DNA of 64,000 bases from a virus (Duplodnaviria; Caudoviricetes). The DNA lies in the IMG/VR virus record IMGVR_UViG_2595698755_000001, positions 104,877-168,876 of that record; one strand, 5' to 3'. Positions 9,101 to 47,261 of the stretch are shown here, piece after piece; the first letter of the stretch is position 1, and the number at the start of each line of letters is the position of its first letter. A program made the translations under genes and the position numbers. The notes under the pieces were generated by a model. It did no database searches and had not been told where the DNA came from. It saw nothing but the letters and a program-made list of their open reading frames with translations.

Positions 9101-10577
9101 CATTTTCACCTTCAATGATTAACTCGCCAAATCTACCTGCTTGATAACTGTTAGCACCTTGTACAATATTCTGATATTTTAACCAGAATTGAATAGTTAC
9201 TTCTCTGTCTACTAACTCTTCACAAGCTTTTCCACTCCATAATTGAGGGCTGAAAATACCACCGTTAGCCCCTACAGGTGTATTGTTTTTTACATGATAT
9301 GCAAACTTAAAAGGTGGGGCTTCTGCTGAGATATCAACAATTTCTTTAACACTACCTGAACTACTATTAGAAGAATACGAATCTTTCCATAATCCTTCTG
9401 TCAAAGGAATTTCAAAATTACCATTACTAGCATGATTCATTTTTACTGGATTATAACTTTCATCACTTGTTACCTGTGATGTATAAGTAGCTAAATCATT
9501 TAATGCATTATACAGATTCAACCAGTTAGTTCTAAATGTTGCTTTTGCAACTGTAATAACTTTATCTTTATTTCCTATAGAGACATCCCAAGGTCTTAAA
9601 GTAGCATTTGATGCATCCTTTAATCCTTCAAGATAATTCTTTAAAGTTGTATATGTACTTTCTACTGTTGTATATTTTATGTGAGTCGAAGGAATACCTA
9701 CTTGGATTGCTTGTCTTCGAACAGTGAAAACTAAACCCTTACCACTTGAATCTAAAGTTCCAATTGCAGGTAAAGTTCCTGTGTCTGTAGTTGAAATTCC
9801 GATAAGACCTTCAACTTTCTCTTTAATTACTTGTCTCTCATTGTAATCAAGTAAGTTGTCGTTCGCCATGTTCCCTAAAGTTTCAGTGATATCTACAATA
9901 ACTTCATGAGCATCTTCTGGTGCAGGTTGCCAATCTAAAGGAATATTTCCCTCTGTTAACTGGATGTTTTTCATCCACCATGTTTCGGGCATTGGACTTT
10001 TATAAATGAATGGTGTGAATAAATATGAAACTCCATCATTCTTTACTTTGAATCTTAAAATAATCTTGTGCCATTTATTAGCAACAAGTGTTCTTTGACC
10101 ACCATCTACAGATATAAATCCATCAATACCTGTTTGACCAGTTAACCCAGAAACAGCAACCCATTCATGTAGTGGTGTACTTGAACTTAATACCATATCT
10201 GTATCAAACATAATTTCCGTACTATATACATATTCCTTGCCATTATTAACAGGAACACTTACAGTACCTTTTACCGAACCTGTAGCGGATAAACAAGGGA
10301 ATCCATCCTTGTTAACAACGTTAAGATTCGTACCGCCATTGTTTGTAGTCCAACCATTTGTAGTAACGAATAGACCACTATATCTTAGTAAGTTTCTTCC
10401 ACCCACTAAAACATTTGATGATTTTTGCCAATCACCATTTTGATAGACATACAATTGCGCTTCTGTTGTACTCCACCATAATTGACCCTCTACTGGGTTT
10501 GATGGTTTAGTTGCAGAAACAAGAACATCGTTCATATCTACTAAGGTCATCTGACCTGTACCAACAATATTTGGCAT
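6147..10577 (-). CDS. Large tail/baseplate protein with repeated carbohydrate-binding-like modules, 1476 aa
   Basis: Repeated G.RNLL.NS...K.EEG...DW.PAPED modules typical of Firmicutes phage minor tail proteins. Confidence 0.75.
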   Translation of the reverse strand: MPNIVGTGQMTLVDMNDVLVSATKPSNPVEGQLWWSTTEAQLYVYQNGDWQKSSNVLVGGRNLLRYSGLFVTTNGWTTNNGGTNLNVVNKDGFPCLSATGSVKGTVSVPVNNGKEYVYSTEIMFDTDMVLSSSTPLHEWVAVSGLTGQTGIDGFISVDGGQRTLVANKWHKIILRFKVKNDGVSYLFTPFIYKSPMPETWWMKNIQLTEGNIPLDWQPAPEDAHEVIVDITETLGNMANDNLLDYNERQVIKEKVEGLIGISTTDTGTLPAIGTLDSSGKGLVFTVRRQAIQVGIPSTHIKYTTVESTYTTLKNYLEGLKDASNATLRPWDVSIGNKDKVITVAKATFRTNWLNLYNALNDLATYTSQVTSDESYNPVKMNHASNGNFEIPLTEGLWKDSYSSNSSSGSVKEIVDISAEAPPFKFAYHVKNNTPVGANGGIFSPQLWSGKACEELVDREVTIQFWLKYQNIVQGANSYQAGRFGELIIEGENASAQKFYRYPRFTASNTIGESTYITGTNMTWVKYSATVKLSLPSNATKLTKISFKHGLEGCTGEFWTTGIKIEFGNRASDWSVSPFDLEQKIYKTEFAVQPDNITSTVTSHQTFTSKVGESIDKATSSESAYINKNYNFADWTGTYPVGFNGNVGTAVVKVASENGNGKSVKYTNALGAESYLSGDGYLNKPYYQYMYVESTFKLESGSINGAGILFRYLKADGAQSAFEGRFKFSDAVASPTLNKWYTVSTVFKVGALSDFGGYRLYAMGSYGAFDATKPAKTIYIDSVISRPATSEEIKAYESQVSFDNIVADDKITPVEKKTLKTEIDMIIAEKATYEAKANEYGVTTEKDAYITAYNKLTSSLTPHLSDLTTTTTLTASIEPKTTTIMRSYFKDYNDKKVILERAILNAVQFGMRNLLRNSNFAKYKTNDTLGWDKDLNGNIVPDGWWSNGYNAGVKPFPTQGYHAHLNVDKFGYPVLELIDRNSNLVDTSVTPNVSGLHRWLGMSNSILLTDPFCQSLAVGKTYTISLEAMADTVGMVVNVGFHHYETGNATQGFFGYQWNLQPCTIANVWERKYHTFTINNKWDLTKALSLYVYGYFSTMEGSMWVRNVKIEEGTRYTDWTPAPEDTDSFLYNLADRVSSAEEKITDNAIINTVTQSTSYKNDLGAKANSEDLKGYATTGQLDQAKQDANKYADEKVGSIDFTPFVVKSEMTQTINDITTKFQAGGGVNLIKNSVGYADFSFWSQVSPTYMKTVGNNALDSLGFGKGFYFFPSAGASHIKQDVYVTAGQPYTLSWYMNKTNASPSTNNDGVMWVQILEGATTLASYKYNSEFTTKGFEKNSYVYTPKSNVVTIRIYAEKLADATVSGLMFNIGDVPLQWSMATGEIYNTNIRMDMNGIKVSQIVNGVDRGYTQITPQEFAGYYDLDGDGTYEKVFYLQEDETVSKKFRAKDEFTMGGIKIIKIESTSNKGWAFVQNLD

Positions 10578-10655
10578 TTAAATCCACTCCTAATTTCCTT
10601 TTATCCAAACAAAGAGTCTTACTAAACGCAAGACTCTTAAACTTTCCATATTTTT

Positions 10656-10684
10656 ATTATACCATTATTTTTGATTTTTGTCAA
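10656..10684 (-). promoter_or_regulatory. Sigma-A consensus promoter
   Basis: TTGACA-17-TATAAT with TG extension on the minus strand. Confidence 0.75.
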
Positions 10685-10697
10685 ATAATATGTTATA

Positions 10698-11792
10698 TTA
10701 TTTAGAAACTTCGCAAATAATATTTCCACGAACTGTAACATCTGCTCCATCAACAGTAATTGTTTTTCCTGTCTTGCTTCCAGTAGTATTCCAGTTTGCG
10801 ATTTTGACATTATTATTGTCATATAGATACCATGTGTATGTATATCCACCTGTACCTGCTGAGTCAATTTCTGCCCCACCTTGATAGATTTTAGCAGTTA
10901 GACTTGTAGTACCTACTCCATTTTTGAATGTGTTAATACCAACGATAGTAACCATGAATGGGTCTGATACGTCAATCACTGTACAAACATCTGCATATTT
11001 TTTAGTGCTGTAAGTCGCTACACATTTGAATGATTCAACGTTTATGATTGCAGAAGCAGGAATTGTAATTGTTGCAGTTGTATAGCCAGTAACACCGTTA
11101 GCTGTCGCTGTATCCTTCATCAACTTCCATCCGTTACCTCCATCTGCATCTCCACCAACAGTAGTTGTAGCTGTTGGGTCTTGGAAGTACCATTTGTATG
11201 TAACACCTGCTGATTGAACTGCTGAACCAACATATAAGTCACATGTTGCCTTTAAAGTACCATTAGCATTTTTAATAGTATTACCATCTGGTGTCCATAC
11301 TGTAGCACGAATAGCATCTTGACCATTTGTACCGTTAGTACCATTTGTACCATTCGTAATCTTAACAATCTCATATTCCGCTTTACTTGTTACTGTGAAT
11401 CCTGTATCAGTATCTAAGAATTGCATTTCACAAATATAAGTCATAGAGTTGTTGGATGCTAGAACGTTCCCTTTAATTGTAAGAGTTTTAGGTGTCCCAG
11501 TTCCTAAAGTGTAGTCTGTTGTACTTGCTGTGATTTCAGTTGGTGTCCCAGTTGAATTAGTTTGTACGAACCATTTTGTAGAAGTAGCTTGGTTTGCCAC
11601 ATCTGTATTTGTTCCTGCTACGAATAATTGCGGTGTCAAAACGTTATTCGCTGTTGTATAGTTAGGAACATATGTTGCTCCATTTGGATTATAAATTACT
11701 TGTCTTTGTTGCGATGAACCAATGAACATAATCAACTGCTTACTATCATTTAAATCCACCAATGTAAGTTGTCCACTTGCAACTATTGCCAT
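10698..11792 (-). CDS. Tail/baseplate structural protein, 364 aa
   Basis: N-terminus (GQLTLVDLND) parallels the next gene (GQMTLVDMND); short NGT repeats; beta-rich. Confidence 0.65.
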   Translation of the reverse strand: MAIVASGQLTLVDLNDSKQLIMFIGSSQQRQVIYNPNGATYVPNYTTANNVLTPQLFVAGTNTDVANQATSTKWFVQTNSTGTPTEITASTTDYTLGTGTPKTLTIKGNVLASNNSMTYICEMQFLDTDTGFTVTSKAEYEIVKITNGTNGTNGTNGQDAIRATVWTPDGNTIKNANGTLKATCDLYVGSAVQSAGVTYKWYFQDPTATTTVGGDADGGNGWKLMKDTATANGVTGYTTATITIPASAIINVESFKCVATYSTKKYADVCTVIDVSDPFMVTIVGINTFKNGVGTTSLTAKIYQGGAEIDSAGTGGYTYTWYLYDNNNVKIANWNTTGSKTGKTITVDGADVTVRGNIICEVSK

Positions 11793-11811
11793 TTCAAATC
11801 ATTCCTTTTTC

Positions 11812-14475
11812 TCAATCTTTATTAATCTCGCACTTGAAAATAGCTTTCTGATTAACATCTACTGCTGTAACGCTAATCTTATTACCTACTCCTACATGTG
11901 CATTTGTCCATGCAGTATCAAGCACTCCATCTTTGTCATATTTTGTCCAGATAAATCCAGAAGGTAGAATTGTGTCAGTGATTTCAGATTGTCCTCTAAA
12001 TACTCTAGCTGTAATATCTGTATCAATTTGACCATTCTTGAACGTAAAACCTTTTGTCGAATGAAACTCAATTTTGTAAACAACATCGTTTTTAACTTCT
12101 TCAATATCAGTCTGGATTCCTTCTGCGATAGTTTTTGCATCTTTTGCAATCTGAGAAACCATAATGTCAATTTGCTTTTGAAGTTCTTCTTGAGCAGTGG
12201 AATAATTTTTCCATCTAGCATCAAACATAGTTCTATCAATTCGTGTTGTAAATGCCATATTGGTAGGGTCTAATAATGGCTTGTCTCCATGTAATTGAAC
12301 GAATAAATAGTCATACAATTCTGTATATCTTGTATGGAAATCTGTAACGAATTGTAGTCCTTCTCCATCATTAGGGAATAGGTTATGAATTTTTTCTGTG
12401 TTTTTGTTATATGCTACTTCATATTTGTCCCATTCAAGTTTTAACATCTTCTTCTCATATGCTGTAATCATGTTGTCATCTTTAAACTCATCAACAAAGT
12501 TAGATGAATCAATGAATTTGTTTCCATCAAATCTTCCACTAGATGATTCTAGAATAAACGCACTTGCATCAATTCTTACACCGTTTTTATCGAATGTGAA
12601 TGTTCCTGCACTGTTTGTTAGAATTAGATTTTCACCTGCGATGATTTGACCAATTAATCTTTCTGCAACGATTCCATCTGGCTTAATTGCTGTTTTCCAT
12701 GTTTCACCTTTGTCTTGTGATAAGGCGATTACACCACTCTGGATAATAACTACTTCATTTGGATTATCGGGACTTGTAACAATCATCCCACGATTACCAA
12801 TTTCGATAGAGTTATTAACCCCTGCGATGATTTTGTTTTTTGTTGCATCCCATTCACTAGTAACAATGTTACTAACTACATCTTCAATTTTGTTTACTTT
12901 GTCCCACTTATACTTATTAGCTTGAACAAGTGAAGATGCACTGGAATTGCTATATAATAATTGAACAAGTTTATCTGTGTCACTTAAAATATCTTTTGTG
13001 TTTGCCACTGTAATACTTGCTTCATTATTTTCTAAGTCATATTTGATTTCAATAATCTTAGCCATATATTCAATCTTCATTTGTGGATATTTAACTTTAA
13101 TTAAATCTCCTAATATCAATTTATCCCAGTAATACTGTTCTTCAATGATATTCATAAGATTGTCAATAGTCACATCTATTACGACTTTTGGTTGTCTTAG
13201 TTCTTCAAATTTCTTGAGTCCATCTTGATATAATTCTTTTGCATCTATATATTTATCATCTACCCATTTTTTCTCAATGATGAATAGATTCAGTTCATCA
13301 AGAAGTTCTGGTGTGAATCCACTACCTGTAGCAATTTGAGTTTGCAATGCATCAATCTGACTCTTATATGATTCTACTTTATTTTTGATGATATCATTTG
13401 CTTGTCGTTTTGCAGTAATCTGTGCTTCTTTATCACTCAACTCTAATTGACGTTGAGAAATTAGTGTCGCATTTTCTGTAGCTTTTGCAGTATCTAACAA
13501 TCCCTGTATTGTTTTAAGTTGACCTTCTAGTTCTCGAAGTTCTGTTTCTCCTGTCAATAATAGAGTTTGTTGTGCTAACATATCATCTGTTAAACTTTTG
13601 ATTTGTGGTGCTTTATCTGCAATCAGTATTTGTTGATTCAAGATAGCATGGCACAATTCATTAGACATAAAATAAGACTCTTTAATAACGTTCTTATTTA
13701 CATCTCTTTCAAATGGATAAAGGAAGTAACTAAAGTCTTCAATGTAAGCTTGACCAGTAGGATTAACTCCATGAATACTTAATTCCTCACTACCATAAAT
13801 ATACAGTCTAGTTGTTAATTCATCTGTTGTTCTTGTTCTTTTGATAGACTGTAAAAATCTACCATAGTTTACTGTCATACCTTTAAATACACCATTCTTG
13901 GACATATCCTTAAATGATACTTTTCTAGTTACAGTATCCCAAACAATCAATGCACCGAATGTTTCTCCTGCTTGAATAATACAATCTAGAACGTTTGAAT
14001 CTGTTCCAGAATCGAATGAACGAAACATGACATCAAACATTGCATCCACTGTTCCAATCTTCCAAACTGTATTCTCAAGTAAATTGGTTAGTAGGTCTGT
14101 AGCATTAATTGCATCCTCTACATAATCACTTACCTGTTTCCCCTTCAACTCATAACCCAAAGAAAAAGCCTTTACATTAAAAATATCTGAATCGTCACCG
14201 TCTTCTTCAATCTCATTAACAACATACCATTCTATGTATGCTCCCATCGTTACTCTAATCAACATCATTTCCTTGATAGAATCAACGTGTGGGTTTGGCT
14301 CTTGGTCTTCAATGAAATGAGGAATAGAGAAGCTTAATTCATTGATGTTTCCTAATTTAACAGACATCTCGCCACCGATTCTCTCATGAATGTGAGAAAT
14401 GATTTGTTTATTAGGTTTTGCTAAATGAAATTTAGCTTCTTGCAACCGTTTATTATAATCAATATCAATAAACAA
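11812..14475 (-). CDS. Tail-associated hub / Tal-like (prophage endopeptidase tail family) protein, 887 aa
   Basis: Position after Dit; INELSFSIP, TRLYIYG...NPTGQAYIEDFSYF, LGDLIKV motifs; central coiled coil. Confidence 0.75.
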   Translation of the reverse strand: MFIDIDYNKRLQEAKFHLAKPNKQIISHIHERIGGEMSVKLGNINELSFSIPHFIEDQEPNPHVDSIKEMMLIRVTMGAYIEWYVVNEIEEDGDDSDIFNVKAFSLGYELKGKQVSDYVEDAINATDLLTNLLENTVWKIGTVDAMFDVMFRSFDSGTDSNVLDCIIQAGETFGALIVWDTVTRKVSFKDMSKNGVFKGMTVNYGRFLQSIKRTRTTDELTTRLYIYGSEELSIHGVNPTGQAYIEDFSYFLYPFERDVNKNVIKESYFMSNELCHAILNQQILIADKAPQIKSLTDDMLAQQTLLLTGETELRELEGQLKTIQGLLDTAKATENATLISQRQLELSDKEAQITAKRQANDIIKNKVESYKSQIDALQTQIATGSGFTPELLDELNLFIIEKKWVDDKYIDAKELYQDGLKKFEELRQPKVVIDVTIDNLMNIIEEQYYWDKLILGDLIKVKYPQMKIEYMAKIIEIKYDLENNEASITVANTKDILSDTDKLVQLLYSNSSASSLVQANKYKWDKVNKIEDVVSNIVTSEWDATKNKIIAGVNNSIEIGNRGMIVTSPDNPNEVVIIQSGVIALSQDKGETWKTAIKPDGIVAERLIGQIIAGENLILTNSAGTFTFDKNGVRIDASAFILESSSGRFDGNKFIDSSNFVDEFKDDNMITAYEKKMLKLEWDKYEVAYNKNTEKIHNLFPNDGEGLQFVTDFHTRYTELYDYLFVQLHGDKPLLDPTNMAFTTRIDRTMFDARWKNYSTAQEELQKQIDIMVSQIAKDAKTIAEGIQTDIEEVKNDVVYKIEFHSTKGFTFKNGQIDTDITARVFRGQSEITDTILPSGFIWTKYDKDGVLDTAWTNAHVGVGNKISVTAVDVNQKAIFKCEINKD

Positions 14476-18800: not shown

Positions 18801-21800
18801 TGCCATATTTTGCGTTGCTGAGATTGCACTCATAATTGCGCTTGCTTCTGATTGTTTAGCGTTTGCTACATTGAATGATGCTGTAGCTGAGTTTTGTGAA
18901 GCATTAGCTTCTGCGTTTTTAGCCTGTGCGTTGTTTTGTGATGCGTTTGCACTTGCTTGAGATGCTTGAGTTGCGCTTGCTAATCCGCTTGATGCTGTCG
19001 CACTTGCAGAACCCATGTTTGCCATAGATTGAGATGCTAATGAACATGATGCACCGACACCATTCATTGCTCCTACAAAGCTACTTGCGCTACCGCTTGC
19101 GTTTGCCATTGAATCTCCAATGCCTTGTAAGCTTTGTGCTGTTCCGCTTGCTTGAGATACTACGTTAGACATTTCACCTCTAACACCACTCATAGATGTT
19201 TGGAATCCACTCATCGCTTGACCTGCACCTGCAAATGCCATACCGAATTGACTTAATCCTGTAGCTGTTCCCGTTACTTCTGTTGCCATTCCGTTCATTG
19301 AAGTTTTAACGTTGTCTACTGCAATCTTATATTGGTCTAATGCGTTTTTAGCGTTTCCAATTGTTGTAACGTGTCCTTGGATTTCTTGTGCACTTGTACC
19401 AGATTGTCTTGACATTCCTTGAAGTTGTTCTGTAAACAATTGTGCACTTGTTTTAAATGGTTGGAATCCTTGGTTGATACCAGTACCTAAGTTGCTGAAT
19501 GCAGTGTTAATACCACCAACGTTTGTTTCAACAGCAGTTTTCGTGTTGCTCATTTCTGTTCCAATGTTTTTAACATTTTCTTTTAATGGTGCTAAACTAT
19601 TTCCAGAGTTGCCGATTTGAGACATTCCAGATTGGAATCCTCCAACTGTTCCTCCTAGTTGTGTGTTCATGTCAATAAGTTTTCGACCTACTGCATCTGC
19701 TTCTGTTTTAAGAGGACTCATGTTTCCACCAGAGTTACCAATTGCAGTTGTATCAGATGATACTTTACTACTCGCTTCACCAGATTTTGTTGTTAGTTCA
19801 TCGAAACCTAAGTCTCTCATCTTTTGTTCTAGTAATGATAATGGTGCACCAGAATTACCTGCACGTTGCATGTCTGCTTCGACTTTACCTGCTGTTTCAC
19901 TAGATTTCGCTGTGAACTCATCAAAGCCTAAGTCTTTCATTTTGTTTTCTAGTAATGATAGTTTTTCACCAGAGTTTCCAATCTTAGCCATTTCTTCTGG
20001 AGTAATTGCTCCTGCTTTTTTAGCGTATTCAATTACACCTTCCATTGTAAGACCCAGTTCATCACCTTTTGCCTTAACTTGACTAAAATCTGCAAGGTTG
20101 ATTTTTTGTAATCCTTCGATTACTTGCTGACCAGTTTGACCACTCAATTGTCCAAGTTTTTCCATTTCTTGAATAAATGGTTGGAACTTGCTTCCAGATG
20201 AACCTACTTTATCACCTGCTTCATTGAATTTGTCTCCTGCTTCGTTGGCTTTGTCGCCACCTTCTTTAGCCTTATCACCTGCTTCGTTAAACTTCTCTCC
20301 ACCGCTTTTAGCTTTGTCTCCTGCTTGGTCAATACGGTTTCCGTTCTCATCTAGGATTTGACCTTGTTCTTTGATACCATGACCAAATGTACGTGCCTTA
20401 CCTGTTAACAAGTCTACGTCTAAACCATATTTAGCAACTGACTCTCTGAATCTATTGATTTGACCTTCTGTTGCGCTACCCCAGTCTAATGCTAGCTTTC
20501 CACTTTCATCATACTTAACGCCAATTTCTTGCATTACAGAAATAGTTTCATGTAATCCATCAATGTTTTCATAAACTTGGTCTTTAGAGATTCCTAAGAA
20601 CTCTGAAAGTTTTGCTCCAGATTCAGCCCAAAGTTGTGTTCCTTTTGCGTTTTCACCATATAATAGTTGAGCAGTTTTAAGTGCTTCTAGGTGACCTTGC
20701 ATGTTTCCTAGTTCTTCATTTTTATATCCGAATAATTCTTTTTGAGCATCTATTGCATCAATAACTGCTTCTTTGTAATCTTTAAGTGCACCTGTAGCTT
20801 CATCAACAGAACCGCCTGTTCCTTCCATTGCAGATGAAACACCGTTCTGAGATTCTTCTAGTGCTCTATTTCTAAGTTCTGCGTTAGCACTTTCCATACC
20901 AAGTTTCATAACAAACTCTCTAGCTTGCTCTGCACTTAATCCGTATTTCTCTGCTTCTTTAGCAAGTTCATCAAATGTTCCACCATTAGATGATTTAACC
21001 TTCATACCAACGTCAATTAATTTTTCCATGTTCTCTTTTGCTTTATCTAAATCATCAAGATTTTTGATATCAAAGAAATCGTCTGGGATTGCTTTACCAA
21101 TACTACCAAGTTGCTGTTTGATTTGTTCGATTTTTTGAGAACCTTTTAGAGTACCAGAGTCAATACCTTGAGTCATTTTGTCGAATGCTTTTGCAAAGAC
21201 ATCACCCATTTGGTTACCGCCCTCGGTAATCTTTCTAATCATTGAATCAATTTGCGCTTGAGATTTTCCATCTTCTACTAGCTTCTTGATTTTATCACTG
21301 TTCATAGTAGCGAATTTCTCTACTACTTGTTGAGCACCTTCACCCATTTTAGCTAGGCTACCTTTTGCTTCTAGATATGCTCTAGATTGCTCTTGGATTT
21401 TTGCAGTTGTTTTTTGTGTTGCATCTAAACGTTTGTAAACTAGGTCTGCCATACCTTTTTCGTATTTCATTTGCGCTTCTGCACGTTCTTCTTTAGAAGC
21501 ACCACCTGTACCTGCTTTCCAATCAACCGAACCAGTTTTAATCTTGTCACGTTCTGCTTTAAGCTTTTTCTCTTCCTCTACTAATTCTCTAAGTGCTTCG
21601 GCTTCTTTCTTAACGTTTTCATCGAATCTCTTATTAGTAGCATCTGCTTTAGCTTGTGATAATTCTTTTGTTAATTTTAAATGTTCTCTAAGTTCCTTAG
21701 AACTCTTCATCCATGCTTGACCTTGTGAGTCAATTGTTTTAACCATGTTTGGCATAGCTTGTGATAGTTTAGTTTGTACAAGCATGAACTCATCGTACTC

Positions 21801-41685: not shown

Positions 41686-43128
41686 TTAAACCGTAACCTT
41701 CGCATATCTTTCAGTCTCTAAAACATCTAACATAAACTCGTATGGAGTCTTGCCATTGGAATCTAGTAATTGTTGTAGAATACTTGGTGAGTAACCACTT
41801 ACTAGCTGTACGCCTTGTGCGTTCATCGTCATTGGTGTATTGCCGACAGCACGTACATTCCAGAATACGATATTAGGGAAGTCATATCCTGCTTCTTCAA
41901 AACGCTCACGCATCTTGTTGAAGATATCAACGCTATTTCCTTTGATACAGTATTCGTCAAACTGCATATCAGAGATTATGTATAACTTCTTGACTACATC
42001 ATCATTTGACACGTTATTCTCAATAGCTACATCTAACACTTTTTGCAAAGCAAGTTGGATGTTTGTGCTATAGCCTTTACGTGCATTGATGTTTCTTACC
42101 TTCTCTACGATGTCGCTACCTTTAATCTCTACGAATGAAGGACGGTCTGTGAAAGTTAAGAAGTGGTTATGGTAAATACCTTTGTTGCGTTCTGCAATAT
42201 ACATTGCTAGTGCAATAGATACTTCCATTGGTGTTCCATTCATACTTTCACTCACATCAGCCATAACTAAAGCATTATCAGTTTTGTCACCGATGAAGTT
42301 TGGTAAGTTTTCCCATTGACCTTCAAACAACTTAATATCTTGTGGAGATACATAGCGATGAAGAATTTTACCTACGATGTCGTTTGGATATAATGTTTTC
42401 GCATTAACCTTCACTTCACCTTTAGATAAACTGTCAAGGAAACCTTTGTAACGTTCTTCGTCATTTCGGAAGAATGCTCCACGATAAACCATTCCTGCAC
42501 GTGATGGAAGTTTGTCATACTGGATGTCTCCATAACGCTTTTCTGAAAGCTTTGTCTCAACTAGGTTAAGCTTCGCTCTCAATTCAGATAACAGTTTACG
42601 ATACTGTTTTGGTTTTACACCAAAATGTTCTCGCATAAGTTTTGCATACTTCTTTGTAACATGACTAGAAGCATTTTCAGATGGCATCCACTTAGCTAGT
42701 AAGGATGGACGGTCTGTTTGCTTGTCTGCTACTAACTGACGTTTAACAAACGCTAAAACATCTGCTTTCAAGTCTGTTTCTAATAATACCCATAAATCAT
42801 CCCAACGACCAAATGCAGGTACAAGTTCAATGTTATTACGTAAAGCTTCCTTGTGATGTAAAGCTAAGTGTTGCATAGCTAAACGGAAGAAACGTCTTTC
42901 CCCTTGTCCTTGTTCAATGTCACGTAAGTAGAAGATTGCTTTCAATGTCAACAATTGATTTTCACCAAATGCCTTAGACACGATTGCTTTAATATCAGCT
43001 TCACTACGTTGTCTCATTGCACCGCCTTGAGAGAATAAATCTAAAACATCAGATTTTGTACTCTTATAAGCGATAGCACCATTTTCAGTTGTTGTTTTAT
43101 TAAATTCATTTTTTAAGTGATTCAACAT
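41686..43128 (-). CDS. DUF2828-family protein (Ro60/TROVE-like helical domain plus C-terminal vWA), 480 aa
   Basis: TENGA..ST...LDLF, RD...GQGER, FGRWDDL, SLLAKWMPSE, YRK.L, LYP.DIV; vWA MIDAS-like DVSES, TN, IISDMQFD, IVFWN, LVSGYSP. Confidence 0.85.
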   Translation of the reverse strand: MLNHLKNEFNKTTTENGAIAYKSTKSDVLDLFSQGGAMRQRSEADIKAIVSKAFGENQLLTLKAIFYLRDIEQGQGERRFFRLAMQHLALHHKEALRNNIELVPAFGRWDDLWVLLETDLKADVLAFVKRQLVADKQTDRPSLLAKWMPSENASSHVTKKYAKLMREHFGVKPKQYRKLLSELRAKLNLVETKLSEKRYGDIQYDKLPSRAGMVYRGAFFRNDEERYKGFLDSLSKGEVKVNAKTLYPNDIVGKILHRYVSPQDIKLFEGQWENLPNFIGDKTDNALVMADVSESMNGTPMEVSIALAMYIAERNKGIYHNHFLTFTDRPSFVEIKGSDIVEKVRNINARKGYSTNIQLALQKVLDVAIENNVSNDDVVKKLYIISDMQFDEYCIKGNSVDIFNKMRERFEEAGYDFPNIVFWNVRAVGNTPMTMNAQGVQLVSGYSPSILQQLLDSNGKTPYEFMLDVLETERYAKVTV

Positions 43129-43220
43129 AATATCACTACTCCTTTTTATCTTTTATTAAACACTTTCTTAAACTCTAAATCTACGTTTCTAATTTAAAAT
43201 GCAAGAAACTGCTTAATAAC

Positions 43221-43281
43221 AAGACACTCCTATTTTTCATCGCATATGATATAAAATTTAGGTATTTGCTGTATGTGTCTT
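43221..43281 (-). ncRNA. ACAGC-module small RNA copy 1 (Y-RNA-like), 61 nt
   Basis: AAGACAC-ATACAGC-AAATA-[CCTA...TAGG stem-loop]-A-GTGTCTT. Confidence 0.7.
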
Positions 43282-43294
43282 TAAGCAATTTTGC

Positions 43295-43423
43295 TAGGCT
43301 CTACCTCTAATCCTGCATCGGCTGTGACCCCTAATGCAAGACGACCTTTCGGAAGGGTCTTTCATCGCTTTGGATATCTTTTAATTGTTCTTATGTATTT
43401 TAAGATTCGCTGTGATGAGCCTA
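43295..43423 (-). ncRNA. ACAGC-module small RNA copy 2, 129 nt
   Basis: TAGGCTC-ATCACAGC-GAAT-[two internal hairpins]-A-GAGCCTA. Confidence 0.6.
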
Positions 43424-43427
43424 ATTT

Positions 43428-43602
43428 GGGTGTTCCTCCCTCGATGTGGACTCTTAGGAAGAACGGGTTGTGAGAGTAAGACATTGCGAACTCTTAGTTT
43501 TTGCCAAGAGTTATTAGGTGAGGTATCTGGGATTACTTAACCCACTATGGGCTTCTCTGCCCTGTGAGCCTTTCATTCCTACCTCGTTCCCCTTACGGGT
43601 TA
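43428..43602 (-). ncRNA. Putative structured RNA of unknown class
   Basis: GC-richer than flanks, no credible ORF, several nested stems (GAGGTA/TACCTC, GGGC/GCCC, TGGG/CCCA, AACTCTTGG/CTAAGAGTT). Confidence 0.45.
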
Positions 43603-43610
43603 TAATTAAC

Positions 43611-43670
43611 TAGACACTATACTTTTATCACCATTGATTGTCGTAAGTATGTATTTGCTGTGTGTGTCTA
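43611..43670 (-). ncRNA. ACAGC-module small RNA copy 3, 60 nt
   Basis: TAGACAC-ACACAGC-AAATA-C-[ATACTT...AAGTAT]-A-GTGTCTA; begins about 8 nt downstream of a consensus -10. Confidence 0.75.
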
Positions 43671-43678
43671 CATTTATT

Positions 43679-43707
43679 ATTATACCATTATCTTTTACTT
43701 TTGTCAA
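43679..43707 (-). promoter_or_regulatory. Sigma-A consensus promoter for small RNAs and DUF2828 gene
   Basis: TTGACA-17-TATAAT with TG extension. Confidence 0.8.
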
Positions 43708-43740
43708 CAATTTCTGTTACATTCTATAAAAGATTTTTGA

Positions 43741-43813
43741 CACCCCAGAAAGGATTCGAACCTTCAACCTTGTGGGTAGAAACCACCTGCACATCCAATT
43801 GTGCTTCTGAGGT
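43741..43813 (-). tRNA. tRNA-Arg(TCT)
   Basis: Cloverleaf; acceptor ACCTCAG/CTGGGGT, loop TTTCTAC, TTCGAAT T-loop; A at position 8. Confidence 0.8.
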
Positions 43814-43818
43814 ATGAA

Positions 43819-43891
43819 CATCCCTATCTGGATTCGAACCAGAATTAAAAGCTTCGTAGGCTTTCGTGTTAATCCATTACACTATAGAGAT
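43819..43891 (-). tRNA. tRNA-Arg(ACG)
   Basis: AAAGC-CTACGAA-GCTTT anticodon arm; TTCGAAT T-loop. Confidence 0.85.
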
Positions 43892-43897
43892 AAAGAG

Positions 43898-43969
43898 TGT
43901 GGTATATCGGATTCGAACCGATGTCTCATGGTTGGAAGCCACAAATCATAACCCCTAGACCAATACCAC
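43898..43969 (-). tRNA. tRNA-Gly(TCC)
   Basis: TGTGG-CTTCCAA-CCATG arm; acceptor GTGGTAT/ATACCAC. Confidence 0.8.
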
Positions 43970-43977
43970 ATAATATA

Positions 43978-44062
43978 AGGAGAGTAAGGGATTCGAACCC
44001 TTGGAAGTTTTACCTCCACTTGGTTAGCAACCAAGCACAATAAGCCACTCTGACAACTCTCC
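43978..44062 (-). tRNA. tRNA-Ser(GCT)
   Basis: CTTGG-TTGCTAA-CCAAG arm; long variable arm. Confidence 0.85.
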
Positions 44063-44070
44063 ATAAAATA

Positions 44071-44156
44071 AGGAAGGTAGCGGACTCGAACCCCTAGACC
44101 ATTGCTGACCACTAGTTTTCAAGACTAGCTAGCACTACCGATATGCAAGACCTTCC
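44071..44156 (-). tRNA. tRNA-Ser(TGA)
   Basis: CTAGT-CTTGAAA-ACTAG arm; long variable arm. Confidence 0.85.
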
Positions 44157-44163
44157 ATAAAAC

Positions 44164-44248
44164 TAGGCACTTTGTAGGGAATTGAACCCTTTATACATTC
44201 TTCTGAGTGATTGTATTCATACCAAAGTATATTAGCTGTGTGTGCCTA
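44164..44248 (-). ncRNA. ACAGC-module small RNA copy 4 with T-arm-like hairpin, 85 nt
   Basis: TAGGCAC-ACACAGC-TAATA-...AGGG-TTCAATT-CCCT-ACAAA-GTGCCTA. Confidence 0.7.
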
Positions 44249-44251
44249 AAA

Positions 44252-44323
44252 TGCAGGTTGAGGGAATCGAACCCCCGATTATCGCTTACAAGGCGATTGT
44301 TATAGCCCCTTAACTAAACCTGC
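44252..44323 (-). tRNA. tRNA-Thr(TGT)
   Basis: ATCGC-CTTGTAA-GCGAT arm. Confidence 0.88.
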
Positions 44324-44324
44324 G

Positions 44325-44398
44325 TGGTGGAGGATAAGGGAGTCGAACCCTTGACTATGGCTTGCAAAGCCATTGTTTTCCCACTAAACTAATCCCCC
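44325..44398 (-). tRNA. tRNA-Ala(TGC)
   Basis: ATGGC-TTTGCAA-GCCAT arm; G3:U70; encoded CCA. Confidence 0.9.
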
Positions 44399-44403
44399 GA
44401 AAG

Positions 44404-44476
44404 TGCGGGTAGCAGGACTCGAACCTGCGACATCTAGCTTCCAAAGCCAGTAGGCTACCAACTGCCCCATACCCAC
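44404..44476 (-). tRNA. tRNA-Pro(TGG)
   Basis: CTGGC-TTTGGAA-GCTAG arm. Confidence 0.85.
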
Positions 44477-44488
44477 ATATTAAGATGA

Positions 44489-44571
44489 TACAGAAGGAGG
44501 GACTCGAACCCTCACGCCACTAGGACAGCAGATTCTAAATCTGCCAAGTCTACCAATTCCATCACTCCTGC
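44489..44571 (-). tRNA. tRNA-Leu(TAG)
   Basis: GCAGA-TTTAGAA-TCTGC arm; long variable arm. Confidence 0.85.
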
Positions 44572-44575
44572 ATAA

Positions 44576-44661
44576 TGGTGGGGCAGATAGGATTCGAACC
44601 TACTAAGCCGATGGCAGTGGATTTACAGTCCACCGTAACTCTCCAACGTTACCGCTACCCC
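44576..44661 (-). tRNA. tRNA-Tyr(GTA)
   Basis: GTGGA-CTGTAAA-TCCAC arm; long variable arm; encoded CCA. Confidence 0.88.
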
Positions 44662-44670
44662 ATATTTAGA

Positions 44671-44741
44671 TGGTGGATGGAAGAATCGAACTTCCGTTTA
44701 TCGGTTATCAGCCGATTGTATTACCTCTATACGAATCCACC
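44671..44741 (-). tRNA. tRNA-Ile(GAT)
   Basis: ATCGG-CTGATAA-CCGAT arm. Confidence 0.88.
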
Positions 44742-44767
44742 AGATTGAGAGATGACCAGTCTCTCAC

Positions 44768-44890
44768 AAGACACAAACTTTTGTGCTCCCACTACACCAC
44801 ATCCCTTAGGTCTTAGGATGGTGAGGAATCGAACCTCACGCCACTACATTGATTGGTTAGTTAGTTGTATGTATTTGCTGTACGTGTCTT
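44768..44890 (-). ncRNA. ACAGC-module RNA copy 5: YrlA-like permuted tRNA mimic, 123 nt
   Basis: AAGACAC-GTACAGC-AAATA...GTGAGG-TTCGATT-CCTCAC (T arm), CATCCT-loop-GGGATG (closed acceptor), TG-GTGT-AGTGGGA-GCAC (D arm)...GTGTCTT. Confidence 0.8.
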
Positions 44891-44896
44891 TATTAA

Positions 44897-44968
44897 TAGC
44901 GCATACGGGACTCGAACCCGTTACTGTAGCGTGAAAGGCTACCGTCTTAACCCATTGACCAATGCGCC
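44897..44968 (-). tRNA. tRNA-Glu(TTC)
   Basis: GTAGC-CTTTCAC-GCTAC arm. Confidence 0.88.
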
Positions 44969-44977
44969 ATGATATTT

Positions 44978-45054
44978 TGGAAGGACTAACCAGATTCGAA
45001 CTGGCGATTGTCTGGGTTGCAACCAGATGTGTTTGTCCACTTCACCATAGCCCT
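44978..45054 (-). tRNA. tRNA-Cys(GCA)
   Basis: TCTGG-TTGCAAC-CCAGA arm; U73; encoded CCA. Confidence 0.88.
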
Positions 45055-45061
45055 TATAATA

Positions 45062-45133
45062 TGGCTCCCGTTGGTATCGAACCAACCTCCAAGGATTTTC
45101 AGTCCTTTGCTAATCCATCTCAGCTAGAGAGCC
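45062..45133 (-). tRNA. tRNA-Phe(GAA)
   Basis: AAGGA-CTGAAAA-TCCTT arm. Confidence 0.88.
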
Positions 45134-45137
45134 ATGA

Positions 45138-45210
45138 TTACGGTGGTGGGAATCGAACCCACTATCTCTTGGTTATGAGCCAAGCAACTTAGCCGTTTGT
45201 CCTCACCGCA
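45138..45210 (-). tRNA. tRNA-Met(CAT) (Met vs Ile2 identity uncertain)
   Basis: CTTGG-CTCATAA-CCAAG arm; acceptor TGCGGTG/CACCGTA. Confidence 0.8.
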
Positions 45211-45261
45211 TTAATATGAATGAAAGCTTCTTTTAGAGTTGAAACTGACCAACATTCTCTA

Positions 45262-45334
45262 TCAGCATGGAGGGAATCGAACCCTCATTCGTGGATTCAC
45301 AGTCCACTGCGTTAAGCCATTACGCCACACACTG
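45262..45334 (-). tRNA. tRNA-His(GTG)
   Basis: GTGGA-CTGTGAA-TCCAC arm; lacks G-1:C73. Confidence 0.8.
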
Positions 45335-45375
45335 GAAACTAAATACTAATATCTAAGACTAATATTTAGTTTCCA
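45333..45375. repeat. 13-bp perfect inverted repeat between tRNA-Gln and tRNA-His
   Basis: TGGAAACTAAATA...TATTTAGTTTCCA. Confidence 0.7.
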
Positions 45376-45394
45376 AAGAATGGAATAAAGATGA

Positions 45395-45468
45395 CTTCCG
45401 AGGAAGGCTTCGAACCTCCAAACCCTAGCTTCAAAGGCTAGTGACTTTACCAGTTTGTCTACTCGGAA
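45395..45468 (-). tRNA. tRNA-Gln(TTG)
   Basis: CTAGC-CTTTGAA-GCTAG arm; U1:A72. Confidence 0.88.
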
Positions 45469-45479
45469 ATAATAGGATA

Positions 45480-45550
45480 TGTGGAATAAGGGAATCGAAC
45501 CCTTGACCTCTGAATGGCAATCAGAAATTTTACCTCTAAACTAATTCCAC
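45480..45550 (-). tRNA. tRNA-Gly(GCC)
   Basis: TCTGA-TTGCCAT-TCAGA arm. Confidence 0.85.
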
Positions 45551-45551
45551 A

Positions 45552-45625
45552 TGGCATACCCTCTAGGATTTGAACCCAGACTAGAAGTTTTGGAGACTCC
45601 TGTGCTACCATTACACTAAGGGTAT
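45552..45625 (-). tRNA. tRNA-Trp(CCA)
   Basis: GGAGT-CTCCAAA-ACTTC arm; G73; encoded CCA. Confidence 0.88.
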
Positions 45626-45626
45626 A

Positions 45627-45700
45627 TGGCGACCCGTAGGGGAATCGAACCCCTAACTCTGCATAGACAGTGCAGTATTTTTCCTTTAAACTAACGAGCC
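45627..45700 (-). tRNA. tRNA-Asp(GTC)
   Basis: CTGCA-CTGTCTA-TGCAG arm (pyrimidine at 37); G73; encoded CCA. Confidence 0.82.
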
Positions 45701-45702
45701 AT

Positions 45703-45777
45703 TGGCTGGGGTGATAGGAATTGAACCTACACTCTTTCGGTTAACAGCCGACTGCTTTACCTTTAAGCTACACCCCA
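45703..45777 (-). tRNA. tRNA-Asn(GTT)
   Basis: GTCGG-CTGTTAA-CCGAA arm; G73; encoded CCA. Confidence 0.88.
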
Positions 45778-45783
45778 ATATTC

Positions 45784-45832
45784 TAGACACTCAACTTTAT
45801 TATCCAAAAGTTGTAATCGCTGTATGTGTCTA
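45784..45832 (-). ncRNA. ACAGC-module small RNA copy 6 (minimal, 49 nt)
   Basis: TAGACAC-ATACAGC-GATTA-CAACTTT-TGGATAAT-AAAGTTG-A-GTGTCTA; first module of the tRNA operon. Confidence 0.75.
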
Positions 45833-45858
45833 AGTAGGTTTCTCAACCTTATAATACT

Positions 45859-45887
45859 ATTATATCATAATCTTTTGTGTTTGTCAA
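45859..45887 (-). promoter_or_regulatory. Sigma-A consensus promoter of tRNA operon
   Basis: TTGACA-17-TATAAT with TG extension. Confidence 0.8.
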
Positions 45888-45968
45888 GTAAATATGTTAC
45901 ATACTTGAAAACTTTTTTTTGAAGTTAAGTGGCGGTTTGATTACAACGTCACCACTTAACTTATACTA

Positions 45969-45997
45969 AGTATACCATTATCTCTGATGTTTGTCAA
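45969..45997 (-). promoter_or_regulatory. Second, tandem sigma-A promoter
   Basis: TTGACA-17-TATACT with TG extension. Confidence 0.7.
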
Positions 45998-46025
45998 CAA
46001 TATATCTTAGATTATTTAAAACTTT

Positions 46026-47261
46026 TTACATTAGGTCAGCAATGTCTGCTACACGACTTCTATGTACTCGTTGAAGTTCAACTTCTCCGAATAGGTCTAG
46101 ACCTCGGAATACCTCTGACATACGCTTCATACCATTGTTAGAAGAATATGCATCTCGGTCAACCTGTGCGAAGTAATCACCGTCTACAACAACCTTAGTA
46201 TTCTCTGAGATACGTTGTAGTCCCAGTTTCATTAGGTCTGCTGTTAAGTTCTGTGCTTCTAGAATCCATACGATTGTTTTGTTATCGCCTGTGTCGAAAC
46301 CACGTAGGTCTACGAATGGAAGGATGTCTAGTTTTTGGTCAAAGATTTGCGCTAAGATTTCTTCCTCGCCACCAAACTTAGATTTAAGCATTGTACCAAC
46401 TGCTGACTGCATTAACTTCTCCATACGGTCACCTTTGTAGAATCCAAGTTCTTGTGCTTCACGTAGAGGTGTTGGGTTAACAAACATTACTAGTTTGTAT
46501 CCTTCTTCTTCAACCATTCTCCAAGCAGTGTTCAGAGTGATTAATGATTTACCACTACCTGCACGACCACGAAGGATTGTTAACTGGTTACTTCTGATTG
46601 AATCAATTGCCATGATTTGATGCTCATCGAATGGCTTGAATTTACCGAATTGATTTGTTCTAAATTCAGCACCTAGTTTGCCTTGTACATCACGTAATGA
46701 TTTTGTAGTTGTCCCAGTCCATTTTACGATGTCAAGTAACTCATCATCCACACGATTATTTACGATAGCGTATTCATTAATCATTAAACCAAAATGGTTG
46801 TGCTCTGGAGTTTCCATCATTCTATTATATCCTGTCTCTGACATTGCAAATTCTTGGAATCCCTTATTGTCAACGAAATTACTGTCATCCATTTTCTGGA
46901 TAGTGATATTGTATAACTTACATTTCTCTTTTAGTAAACGGTCATTAGTAATCATTCCATAACCATTATCTACAGCTACTTGAAGCAGGATGTTGTCTAC
47001 ATATTGTGAGTCAAATCCATCTTCTTCTTTTTCTAAAGAAAACTTGTAATCTTTAATGTCAATGTATACATGAGGGTTGTCTTCATTTTCATCAAGGAAT
47101 TTTTTAAGTCTACGAATCTCAAATTGTAAAGTTCTGTCACTCTTACGTTTAAGTTCAAGTTGTTCAATCTCTCTTAACACATGTGAAGGAATCACACAAT
47201 CAAAATCGAAAACAACTTCTGGTTTTCTTAGTAATGCATTTGTATCTACAACAAATTTCAT
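46026..47261 (-). CDS. phoH: PIN-PhoH (PhoH2/YlaK-like) protein
   Basis: N-terminal PIN VVDTNALL, VDNILL, ITNDRLL; GRAGSGKS Walker A, LGFYKG, LRG, EAQNLT, GDYFAQVD, HRSRVA. Confidence 0.88.
   Translation of the reverse strand: MKFVVDTNALLRKPEVVFDFDCVIPSHVLREIEQLELKRKSDRTLQFEIRRLKKFLDENEDNPHVYIDIKDYKFSLEKEEDGFDSQYVDNILLQVAVDNGYGMITNDRLLKEKCKLYNITIQKMDDSNFVDNKGFQEFAMSETGYNRMMETPEHNHFGLMINEYAIVNNRVDDELLDIVKWTGTTTKSLRDVQGKLGAEFRTNQFGKFKPFDEHQIMAIDSIRSNQLTILRGRAGSGKSLITLNTAWRMVEEEGYKLVMFVNPTPLREAQELGFYKGDRMEKLMQSAVGTMLKSKFGGEEEILAQIFDQKLDILPFVDLRGFDTGDNKTIVWILEAQNLTADLMKLGLQRISENTKVVVDGDYFAQVDRDAYSSNNGMKRMSEVFRGLDLFGEVELQRVHRSRVADIADLM

Follow-up and report, generated by a model that had tools for sequence, protein, structure and literature searches.

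Ro60 and its Y RNAs form a classic ribonucleoprotein of animals and of about 5% of bacteria, the Y-RNA side of which is hard to find beyond a few lineages. Here we describe a phage locus with a comparable arrangement, in which six small elements on the minus strand (el1 to el6), each enclosed by a short helix with an adjoining ACAGC motif, lie upstream of a gene on the same strand whose product carries the Pfam domains DUF2828 and DUF7788. The locus lies in a stretch of 64,000 nucleotides, hereafter the window, which corresponds to positions 104877-168876 of a phage genome that is complete at 168,876 bp and has terminal repeats (IMG/VR record IMGVR_UViG_2595698755_000001). We consider it likely that the six elements are Y-RNA-like small non-coding RNAs for the phage's own Ro60-like DUF2828 protein. 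The pairing of their shared handle with the DUF2828 gene recurs in many unrelated phages and is probably a second kind of Ro/Y-RNA particle.

Known Y RNAs present the Ro-binding motifs GNCGAAN0-1G, GGUCCGA or CGAA (PMC4201824, PMC12135203), and in YrlA an initial stem is followed by a T arm, a closed acceptor, a D arm and again a stem (Chen et al. 2014, PMC4201824); the survey in which this order is given was limited to genomes annotated with TROVE proteins. Phages have entered the picture recently. The phiRo60 protein of Thermus phage phiLo binds the RNAs Yrl1 and Yrl2, encoded upstream of it, via a CGAA bulge and complexes with the host PNPase (PMC12135203). Protein gp130 of phage Bas63, Ro60-like by structure and encoded just upstream of tRNA genes, is reported to counter the ppl defence, and its authors suggest that some of the 'tRNA genes' may be Y RNAs (preprint 10.1101/2024.10.10.617714). 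In the Listeria phage CKA15, described in 2025, the protein CKA15_055 matches Rsr by HHpred and is encoded downstream of tRNA genes; its gene follows three very highly transcribed unannotated regions, for which the authors offer Y RNAs as one explanation, and the protein is present in purified virions (PMC12282133).

A further class of small RNAs to be compared with our elements comes from social amoebae. The Class I RNAs of Dictyostelium, 42-65 nt in length, combine a covarying 6-bp end stem with a variable interior and with a motif of 11 unpaired nt that adjoins the 5' strand; AAG stands at their start and CUGU at their end, and they are covered by the published search pattern GTTGRCCTTACAGCAA ... 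GTCAACTG (PMC7919456, PMC5054030). The authors report the class in dictyostelids only, and the RRM protein Rnp1A is its sole confirmed direct binder.

Six elements share a handle of helix, bulged motif and 3' G

A first-pass annotation, made from the DNA sequence of the window, had proposed six minus-strand elements that open and close with a 7-bp helix. An exact scan returned all six at the coordinates claimed, with the helices as written. They are given here together with the downstream gene; R1 and R2 denote two covariance models, R1 built from short Bacillus copies only and R2 broader.

45784-45832, minus strand: el1, 49 nt; first in the tRNA operon, its start 26 nt downstream of the -10 box; R1 match; fold z -2.8
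44768-44890, minus strand: el2, 123 nt; between tRNA-Glu and tRNA-Ile; permuted tRNA-mimic cargo
44164-44248, minus strand: el3, 85 nt; between tRNA-Thr and tRNA-Ser; fold z -3.5
43611-43670, minus strand: el4, 60 nt; starts 8 nt after the -10 box; R1 match at 5e-12
43295-43423, minus strand: el5, 129 nt; TAGGCTC ATC ACAGCGAATC ... GAGCCTA G
43221-43281, minus strand: el6, 61 nt; AAGACAC AT ACAGCAAATAC ... A GTGTCTT G; R1 match at 3.5e-11, R2 match at 2e-11
41686..43128, minus strand: DUF2828/DUF7788 gene, 480 aa; Pfam PF11443 at 1.5e-37 and PF25043 at 1.5e-42

The helices are TAGACAC/GTGTCTA and AAGACAC/GTGTCTT, each present twice, TAGGCAC/GTGCCTA and TAGGCTC/GAGCCTA, with the consensus WAGRCWC. 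Between helix and ACAGC stand 2 nt in five of the six copies and 3 nt in el5; the motif continues as GATTA, AAATA, TAATA, AAATA, GAATC and AAATA across the six, and the 3' strand is followed by G in every copy. El1, el3, el4 and el6 have a second helix, which starts behind ACAGC-N6 and closes within 0-2 nt of the 3' strand; since this helix abuts the 3' strand, the motif forms a 12-13-nt 5' bulge and not a free loop. The proposal that ACAGC is unpaired therefore stands, but the open loop imagined for it does not. Something similar applies to the A observed directly 5' of the 3' strand: five of the six copies have it, el2 being the exception, but the base at this position is A in only 29% of 645 elements (a broad set that is not filtered for chance matches), which makes it a local feature and not a general one.

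A generic pattern of any 7-mer, ACAGC and the complement of the 7-mer yields about six matches per shuffled window, so that the non-random part of the set is the shared helix consensus, the clustering within 2.6 kb and the single strand. In good accord with the initial impression that the module occurs nowhere else in the window, R1 matches are confined to this stretch, and the same is true of the whole 168,876-bp genome. Both R1 and R2 miss el5, the copy with the 3-nt spacer and a long cargo.

The helix covaries and the handle outlives its cargo

In eight related Bacillus phages the same places are occupied by 5-9 copies per phage. New compensatory helices appear among them (AAGACGC/GCGTCTT, TAGACTC/GAGTCTA and AAGGCAC/GTGCCTT), and the cargo drifts or is replaced while the handle stays, which holds for the counterparts of el6 as well. 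The counterparts of el5 are closed by TAGGCTC/GAGCCTA or TAGACTC/GAGTCTA, and those in Izhevsk and Thrax4 read TCAGCAA in place of ACAGCAA; hence the first A of the motif can vary.

Trained on Bacillus copies, R1 also detects the handle beside the DUF2828 gene of the B. subtilis phage FADO, the Staphylococcus phage SEP9, the Mycobacterium phage Faith1, Enterococcus phage 113, the Listeria phage LP-083-2 and the Citrobacter phage Michonne. The helices of these six distant phages are TGGTCAC, TGGACGC, AAGTCTC, AAGAACC, AGGAATC and AGAGAGC, with ACAGCAA and the 3' G constant. Handle copies lie downstream of the gene in Faith1, SEP9 and Michonne, and in Faith1 and SEP9 they form arrays directly after it.

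Across 21 sequences from Bacillus, Staphylococcus, Listeria, Enterococcus and Mycobacterium phages, 147 of 147 cells are paired and six of the seven pairs are changed on both sides, with 12-48% pairing in slid controls. The complete pairing arises partly by construction, because the sequences were picked by pairing-rewarding tools; the variety of helices beside the same gene, on the other hand, is not built in by this selection. What the six copies had suggested, namely conserved pairing with compensatory changes, is thus borne out by the new helices of the relatives.

Contigs of two soil metatranscriptome runs (X2 and X3) from relatives 90-99% alike cover el2, el3 and part of el5, with a further handle on one loose end; the highest share of sampled words in any run was 0.11. 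As DNA was possibly present in the libraries, and contigs are blind to transcription, ends and strand, we give these data no weight either way.

Handle and DUF2828 gene co-occur in both directions

For the viral set, 80 IMG/VR loci were taken with a DUF2828 relative at 39-65% identity as the sole criterion; the genome set comprised 80 loci drawn from genome bins of bacteria and archaea. Every one of the 174 R2 matches at E<=1 in the IMG/VR loci falls on the strand of the gene. A model-free pattern scanner gives 211 same-strand versus 21 opposite-strand matches in the same loci, 69 of which are positive, with 104 matches at most 500 nt upstream of the gene. In the genome set the corresponding counts are 267 and 28, with 74 of the 80 loci positive and 161 matches within 500 nt.

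Searching from the RNA side, a handle 16-mer fetched 111 viral loci, of which 73 close into the full module and 38, without a closing helix, serve as controls. The DUF2828 gene is found within the short locus for 18 of the 73 full modules versus none of the 38 non-closing ones. Whole records covering 48 of the remaining 55 full-module loci contain the gene in 18 cases, and in 13 of the 16 with at least 90% completeness; among the controls it is present in 1 of 37 whole records and in 1 of the 7 near-complete ones. The enrichment expected for a covariance-model search is therefore seen beside DUF2828 genes of distant phages and of genome contigs, it is strand-specific, and the reverse test agrees with it. 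No handle was found in the whole genomes of CM1 and BCP78, two Bacillus phages with 18-21 annotated tRNA genes and without DUF2828. In KVP40 there is one match, about 7 kb upstream and on the strand of the gene.

LP-083-2 has three handles (5653-5915) directly upstream of its DUF2828 gene and, on the same strand 1.3-5 kb downstream (8845-12557), genes for an RtcB-like ligase and a putative RNA ligase. Such a neighbourhood of Ro and RtcB has precedents in bacterial RNA repair operons. The phage of the window differs from the Listeria phage in this respect: RtcB is absent from its genome, and the three frames with an RNA-ligase domain are some 20 kb away from the window, which leaves the locus without a repair operon of its own.

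The DUF2828 protein is predicted to adopt a Ro60-like fold

By Pfam the protein contains DUF2828, DUF7788 and a sub-threshold VWA_2 match only. It belongs to PHROG 850, which is labelled 'RNA-binding protein', and its relatives in cluster L mycobacteriophages are annotated as 'Ro-like RNA binding protein'. The family is large: phmmer gives 6,912 protein clusters at E<=0.001, and tblastn homologues occur in 709 phage records. Looking up protein clusters returned DUF2828 clusters only, in one of which the commonest phylum is Nucleocytoviricota.

An AlphaFold2 model computed with 56 sequences has a pLDDT of 92 and a pTM of 0.91. The best 12 Foldseek matches to it in the Protein Data Bank (PDB) are all Ro60/Rsr/TROVE chains. 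VIA-align superimposes residues 6-461 of the model on residues 10-537 of Xenopus Ro60 (1yvr) with a Z of 21.4 and a root-mean-square deviation of 3.8 A over 417 residues, and gives a Z of 15.2-15.9 for the Ro60 of Thermus phage phiLo (PDB 9l5y, 9kop). The best non-Ro chain reaches a Z of 10.9, and such chains match the vWA domain only. In these structural alignments the identity to solved Ro60/Rsr/TROVE chains is 10-18%. Residues D291, S293, S295, T355 and D387 are invariant across the 56 sequences and correspond to the DxSxS...T...D metal site (MIDAS) of the vWA domain. The predicted structure thus describes the DUF2828 protein, over its full length, as a Ro60-like ring made up of helical repeats, with a vWA domain at the C terminus closing it, in line with the ring that had been guessed for it.

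Cargo ranges from simple hairpins to a permuted tRNA mimic

The cargo of el2 consists of a T arm, an acceptor-like stem with a closing loop, a U8-like TG and a D arm, that is, a circularly permuted tRNA mimic. Aligned with 10 counterparts (11 sequences), el2 shows a GTTCGAnTC T loop, an acceptor-like stem closed by a loop of 3-11 nt, a U8-like T and a D arm; RNAalifold recovers the T arm, the acceptor-like stem and the D arm, each of them with compensatory changes, which affect 13 of 21 predicted pairs in total. In el3 the second helix, ACTTTG/CAAAGT, abuts the handle, and the cargo includes a hairpin and a T-arm-like hairpin (AGGG TTCAATT CCCT). The cargo of el5 includes a conserved hairpin, GACC-CTTCCGAAA-GGTC, and el1, el4 and el6 enclose simple hairpins without tRNA parts.

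A different tRNA-like cargo is seen in vB_BcoS-136 (5905-6028) and PBC2 (7342-7464), where another copy of the handle encloses an unpermuted tRNA-Ile-like body in which a complete D arm is joined by a GAT anticodon arm and by a T arm, the acceptor stem being replaced. The PBC2 record labels this element as tRNA-Ile.

Comparison with Ro60, Y RNAs, YrlA and other phage proteins

The locus resembles Ro60/Rsr and its Y RNAs, above all the YrlA of bacteria and mycobacteriophages, in several ways. The protein is a ring with a vWA domain, here by predicted fold; the two ends of the RNA form a stem adjoined by a conserved unpaired or bulged motif; each genome has several RNA genes, which adjoin the protein gene and share its strand; and the tRNA-like domain of el2 follows the YrlA order of stem, T arm, closed acceptor, D arm and stem. 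It differs in that the protein belongs to Pfam DUF2828/DUF7788 and not to TROVE, that the motif of the handle is ACAGCAA, and that some of the RNAs sit inside a tRNA operon. The view of the elements as Y-like RNAs with ACAGC in place of the canonical motif is consistent with the YrlA-type topology of the el2 cargo. As for existing RNA families, Rfam searches at E<=1 (43100-46100) and at E<=10 (43200-43700) returned tRNA and chance-level matches only and no family that fits the elements. The two matches to RF02553 (YrlA) at E<=1 in 43100-46100 are weak (21.5 and 20.8 bits against a cut-off of 69), and both fall on pairs of tRNAs.

Like the phiLo system, the window holds a phage gene for a (here predicted) Ro60-type ring with RNA genes just upstream, and phiRo60 with Yrl1 and Yrl2 is a working model for binding; unlike ours, the phiLo RNAs use a CGAA bulge, and the phiLo protein aligns to our model below Xenopus Ro60. 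Bas63 gp130 and CKA15_055 are likewise Ro60-like phage proteins adjoining tRNA genes, for which Y-RNA partners have been guessed; unlike the present analysis, the two papers define no RNA motif in the portions available. Felix-like and P100-like phages have DUF2828 homologues at 32-36% identity with handles alongside, and gp130 and CKA15_055 probably belong to the same family as the DUF2828 protein. We found no prior description of the handle RNA in the literature, the supplementary tables of Chen et al. 2014 and the PhageMaP preprint being outside the scope of that search. Of the candidate 'new RNP system' proposed by the first-pass annotation, the RNA handle accordingly remains new, but the protein does not: relatives were already annotated as Ro-like or RNA-binding, and Y RNAs had been guessed in two papers.

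Resemblance to the Class I RNAs of social amoebae

Similar to Class I RNAs, the phage elements combine a short covarying end stem with an adjacent unpaired motif that ends in ACAGCAA, a variable interior and many copies; the AAG start and the G just after the 3' strand are further likenesses. The published description and pattern of the class cover the three short copies el1, el4 and el6 (49-61 nt); el2, el3 and el5 are longer. In contrast, Class I RNAs are transcribed from eukaryotic nuclear genes with a DUSE promoter and the phage elements stand behind sigma-A-type promoters, and RF01414, the Class I family, gave no match at E<=1 in 43100-46100 or at E<=10 in 43200-43700. The relation is therefore one of resemblance, not of membership. 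A tentative idea, which we regard as rather unlikely, is that handle RNAs and Class I RNAs are one ancient class partnered by the DUF2828 ring and spread over phages, giant-virus-labelled contigs and eukaryotes. In phages the particle would then be a modular anti-defence adaptor, in which a single protein takes up many cargo RNAs, tRNA mimics among them, to overcome host defences aimed at RNA or at nucleic acids.

A 15.6-kb contig named as a giant-virus metagenome bin carries, within positions 1-1100, three handles that are complete (AAGACAC TA ACAGCAATT ... GTGTCTT G), and tRNA genes come after each of them; the DUF2828 gene is absent from this locus.

Layout of the locus

The closest relative of the stretch is Bacillus phage vB_BanS-Thrax4 (93.9% identity); KoopaTroopa, Izhevsk, Skywalker and other Tsamsavirus phages follow at about 89-93%. 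The remaining features of the locus are as follows.

46026-47261, minus strand: PIN-PhoH (ribonuclease-helicase) gene, upstream of the tRNA operon
45997-45969, minus strand: near-consensus promoter ahead of the tRNA-operon promoter
45859..45887, minus strand: consensus sigma-A-type promoter with TG, 12/12 hexamer matches; heads el1 and the tRNA operon
43739..45777, minus strand: three blocks of tRNA genes (10, 6 and 5; 21 in all), from ARAGORN and Rfam tRNA matches
43679..43707, minus strand: consensus sigma-A-type promoter (TTGACA, 17 nt, TATAAT with TG before it), 12/12 hexamer matches; heads the el4-DUF2828 transcript

Read along the minus strand, the PIN-PhoH gene is followed by the near-consensus and the consensus promoter, el1, 10 tRNA genes, el2, 6 tRNA genes, el3 and 5 tRNA genes, so that el2 and el3 separate the three tRNA blocks. 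Then come the second consensus promoter, el4, a stretch of 187 nt, el5, el6 and, 92 nt after the end of el6, the start codon of DUF2828. Two small frames and a metallophosphatase gene lie 3' of the DUF2828 gene. No terminator-like site was found on the minus strand between the promoter at 43679..43707 and the DUF2828 start codon, and the 5' end of el4 is probably set by transcription initiation.

The 187-nt interval between el4 and el5 (43424-43610, minus strand) folds at -54.4 kcal/mol (z -3.1) and is better conserved than the neighbouring cargo in Izhevsk, Thrax4, Skywalker, MrDarsey, Thrax2 and PBC2. It has no matching Rfam family and may be an additional non-coding RNA on the el4-DUF2828 transcript. 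A 40-aa frame (43362-43484) overlaps this interval and el5; no ribosome-binding site is seen for it. Further upstream, at 45905-45965 on the minus strand, a hairpin of 9 bp (GTTAAGTGG ... CCACTTAAC) with an A-run comes between the near-consensus promoter and the consensus promoter of the tRNA operon; it may represent a short transcript or a bidirectional terminator. Between tRNA-Gln and tRNA-His (45332-45375, minus strand) lies a perfect 12-bp hairpin (GGAAACTAAATA ... TATTTAGTTTCC); R2 matches it at an E of 0.12, and we rejected it as a seventh element, as it is a plain hairpin without ACAGC.

Discussion

In this study a covarying RNA helix, its motif, a predicted Ro60 fold and two-way co-occurrence of RNA and gene have been established for a phage locus and its relatives. 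The new part is the defined RNA handle, the Ro60-like protein side being already known. The handle, which consists of the 7-bp end helix, the 12-13-nt 5' bulge with ACAGCAA (here ACAGC-NAWT), the second helix and the 3' G, would serve as the docking site of the protein, and the variable cargo (short hairpins, a T-arm module or, in el2, the permuted tRNA mimic of YrlA topology) would decide what each particle does or recruits. Of the two strong promoters, one would drive the tRNA operon with el1, el2 and el3, and the other would drive el4, el5 and el6 into DUF2828. Because el4, el5 and el6 share a transcript with DUF2828, the protein and part of its RNAs would be made together, and release of these RNAs would need processing. 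The particle is likely to act in RNA surveillance or repair, or in counter-defence, during infection; it may also tether effectors or help to protect or repair tRNA, as the first-pass annotation had proposed.

Several observations weigh against this explanation. Pfam finds no TROVE domain in the DUF2828 protein, and neither phmmer nor the 56-sequence profile found Ro60 among PDB sequences, so that kinship to Ro60 comes from the predicted fold. On the RNA side, RF02553 matches none of the six elements at E<=1, and the Ro-binding motifs GNCGAAN0-1G, GGUCCGA and CGAA are absent from the handle. The association has exceptions: 11 of the 80 viral and 6 of the 80 genome loci are scanner-negative, 3 of the 16 near-complete records with a handle have no DUF2828 gene, and the loci are not independent samples because several are near-duplicates. 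Kirov, which is syntenic with the window and has lost the DUF2828 gene and most tRNA genes, keeps one handle at 19452-19509, at the head of its shortened tRNA operon (R2 at 1.3e-9), which means that the RNA can persist, or act, without the protein. Binding, processing and function of the particle are what we infer from the evidence above.

The modules could instead be processing or stability signals of tRNA operons, either cut sites for an RNase of host or phage or protective end-helices, and be linked to DUF2828 only via tRNA-rich phages. The tRNA cluster is indeed punctuated by el1, el2 and el3, the gene for the PIN-PhoH ribonuclease-helicase stands just upstream of it, and the single module of Kirov heads a tRNA operon in a genome without DUF2828. 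However, the tRNA-rich CM1 and BCP78 have no module in their whole genomes, and half of the same-strand matches lie within 500 nt of a DUF2828 gene. In Faith1, where the arrays come directly after the gene, there is no tRNA gene among the 25 annotated features of the 11.4-kb locus; in SEP9, which has the same arrangement, the sole annotated tRNA (tRNA-Pro) lies about 2.1 kb past the last handle. An invariant single-stranded heptamer beside a freely varying helix is also more fitting for a specific protein site than for a site of the RNase III type, and we judge this explanation improbable. The elements might also be tRNA genes that have decayed or been rearranged, or else a small mobile repeat, and have no function of their own. 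There are tRNA parts in el2 and el3, homing endonuclease genes reside in the tRNA clusters of relatives, and in PBC2 an annotated tRNA-Ile overlaps a handle element. Yet from Bacillus phages to those of Mycobacterium, Staphylococcus and Citrobacter the handle is preserved by compensatory changes in its helix, it is strictly strand-specific (174/174 R2 matches in the 80 IMG/VR loci), counterparts retain it while their cargo diverges, and the short copies have no tRNA parts at all; such an origin is barely credible.

A reading that concerns only part of the set is that el6, and perhaps el5, are not free RNAs but a cis-acting leader through which the DUF2828 protein would regulate the mRNA that encodes it. 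El4, el5 and el6 do stand downstream of a consensus promoter and ahead of the start codon, no terminator-like site having been found there on the minus strand, and about half of the matches in other loci are at most 500 nt upstream of the gene. Such a leader leaves unexplained the copies in tRNA operons, the downstream copies of Faith1, SEP9 and Michonne, and the tRNA-mimic cargo; as a full account it has a small chance at best, and it is compatible with Y-RNA-like partners of the DUF2828 ring rather than opposed to them. Two other ideas were dropped: retron-like priming, to which the G in ACAGC near the end helix might have pointed, because there is no reverse transcriptase nearby, and a self-cleaving ribozyme because there is no Rfam match.

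If the six elements are the Y-RNA-like partners of the DUF2828 protein, a second and far larger, phage-borne branch of Ro-like proteins gains a simple RNA signature that can be searched for. Candidate partner RNAs would emerge from hundreds of intergenic stretches now called 'hypothetical' and from the odd 'pseudo-tRNAs' that occur in the tRNA clusters of phages, and their cargo would become readable as a list of the targets of the ring. To this the window contributes a six-member set with three members in a tRNA operon, a promoter-defined 5' end, a well-supported permuted tRNA mimic and, in Kirov, CM1 and BCP78, natural controls. The handle also offers an experimental entry point to a family that a preprint has credited with countering a bacterial defence system. 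Finally, a link that can be tested leads from it to the Class I RNAs of social amoebae, which lack an explanation, and would, if true, supply their missing protein.

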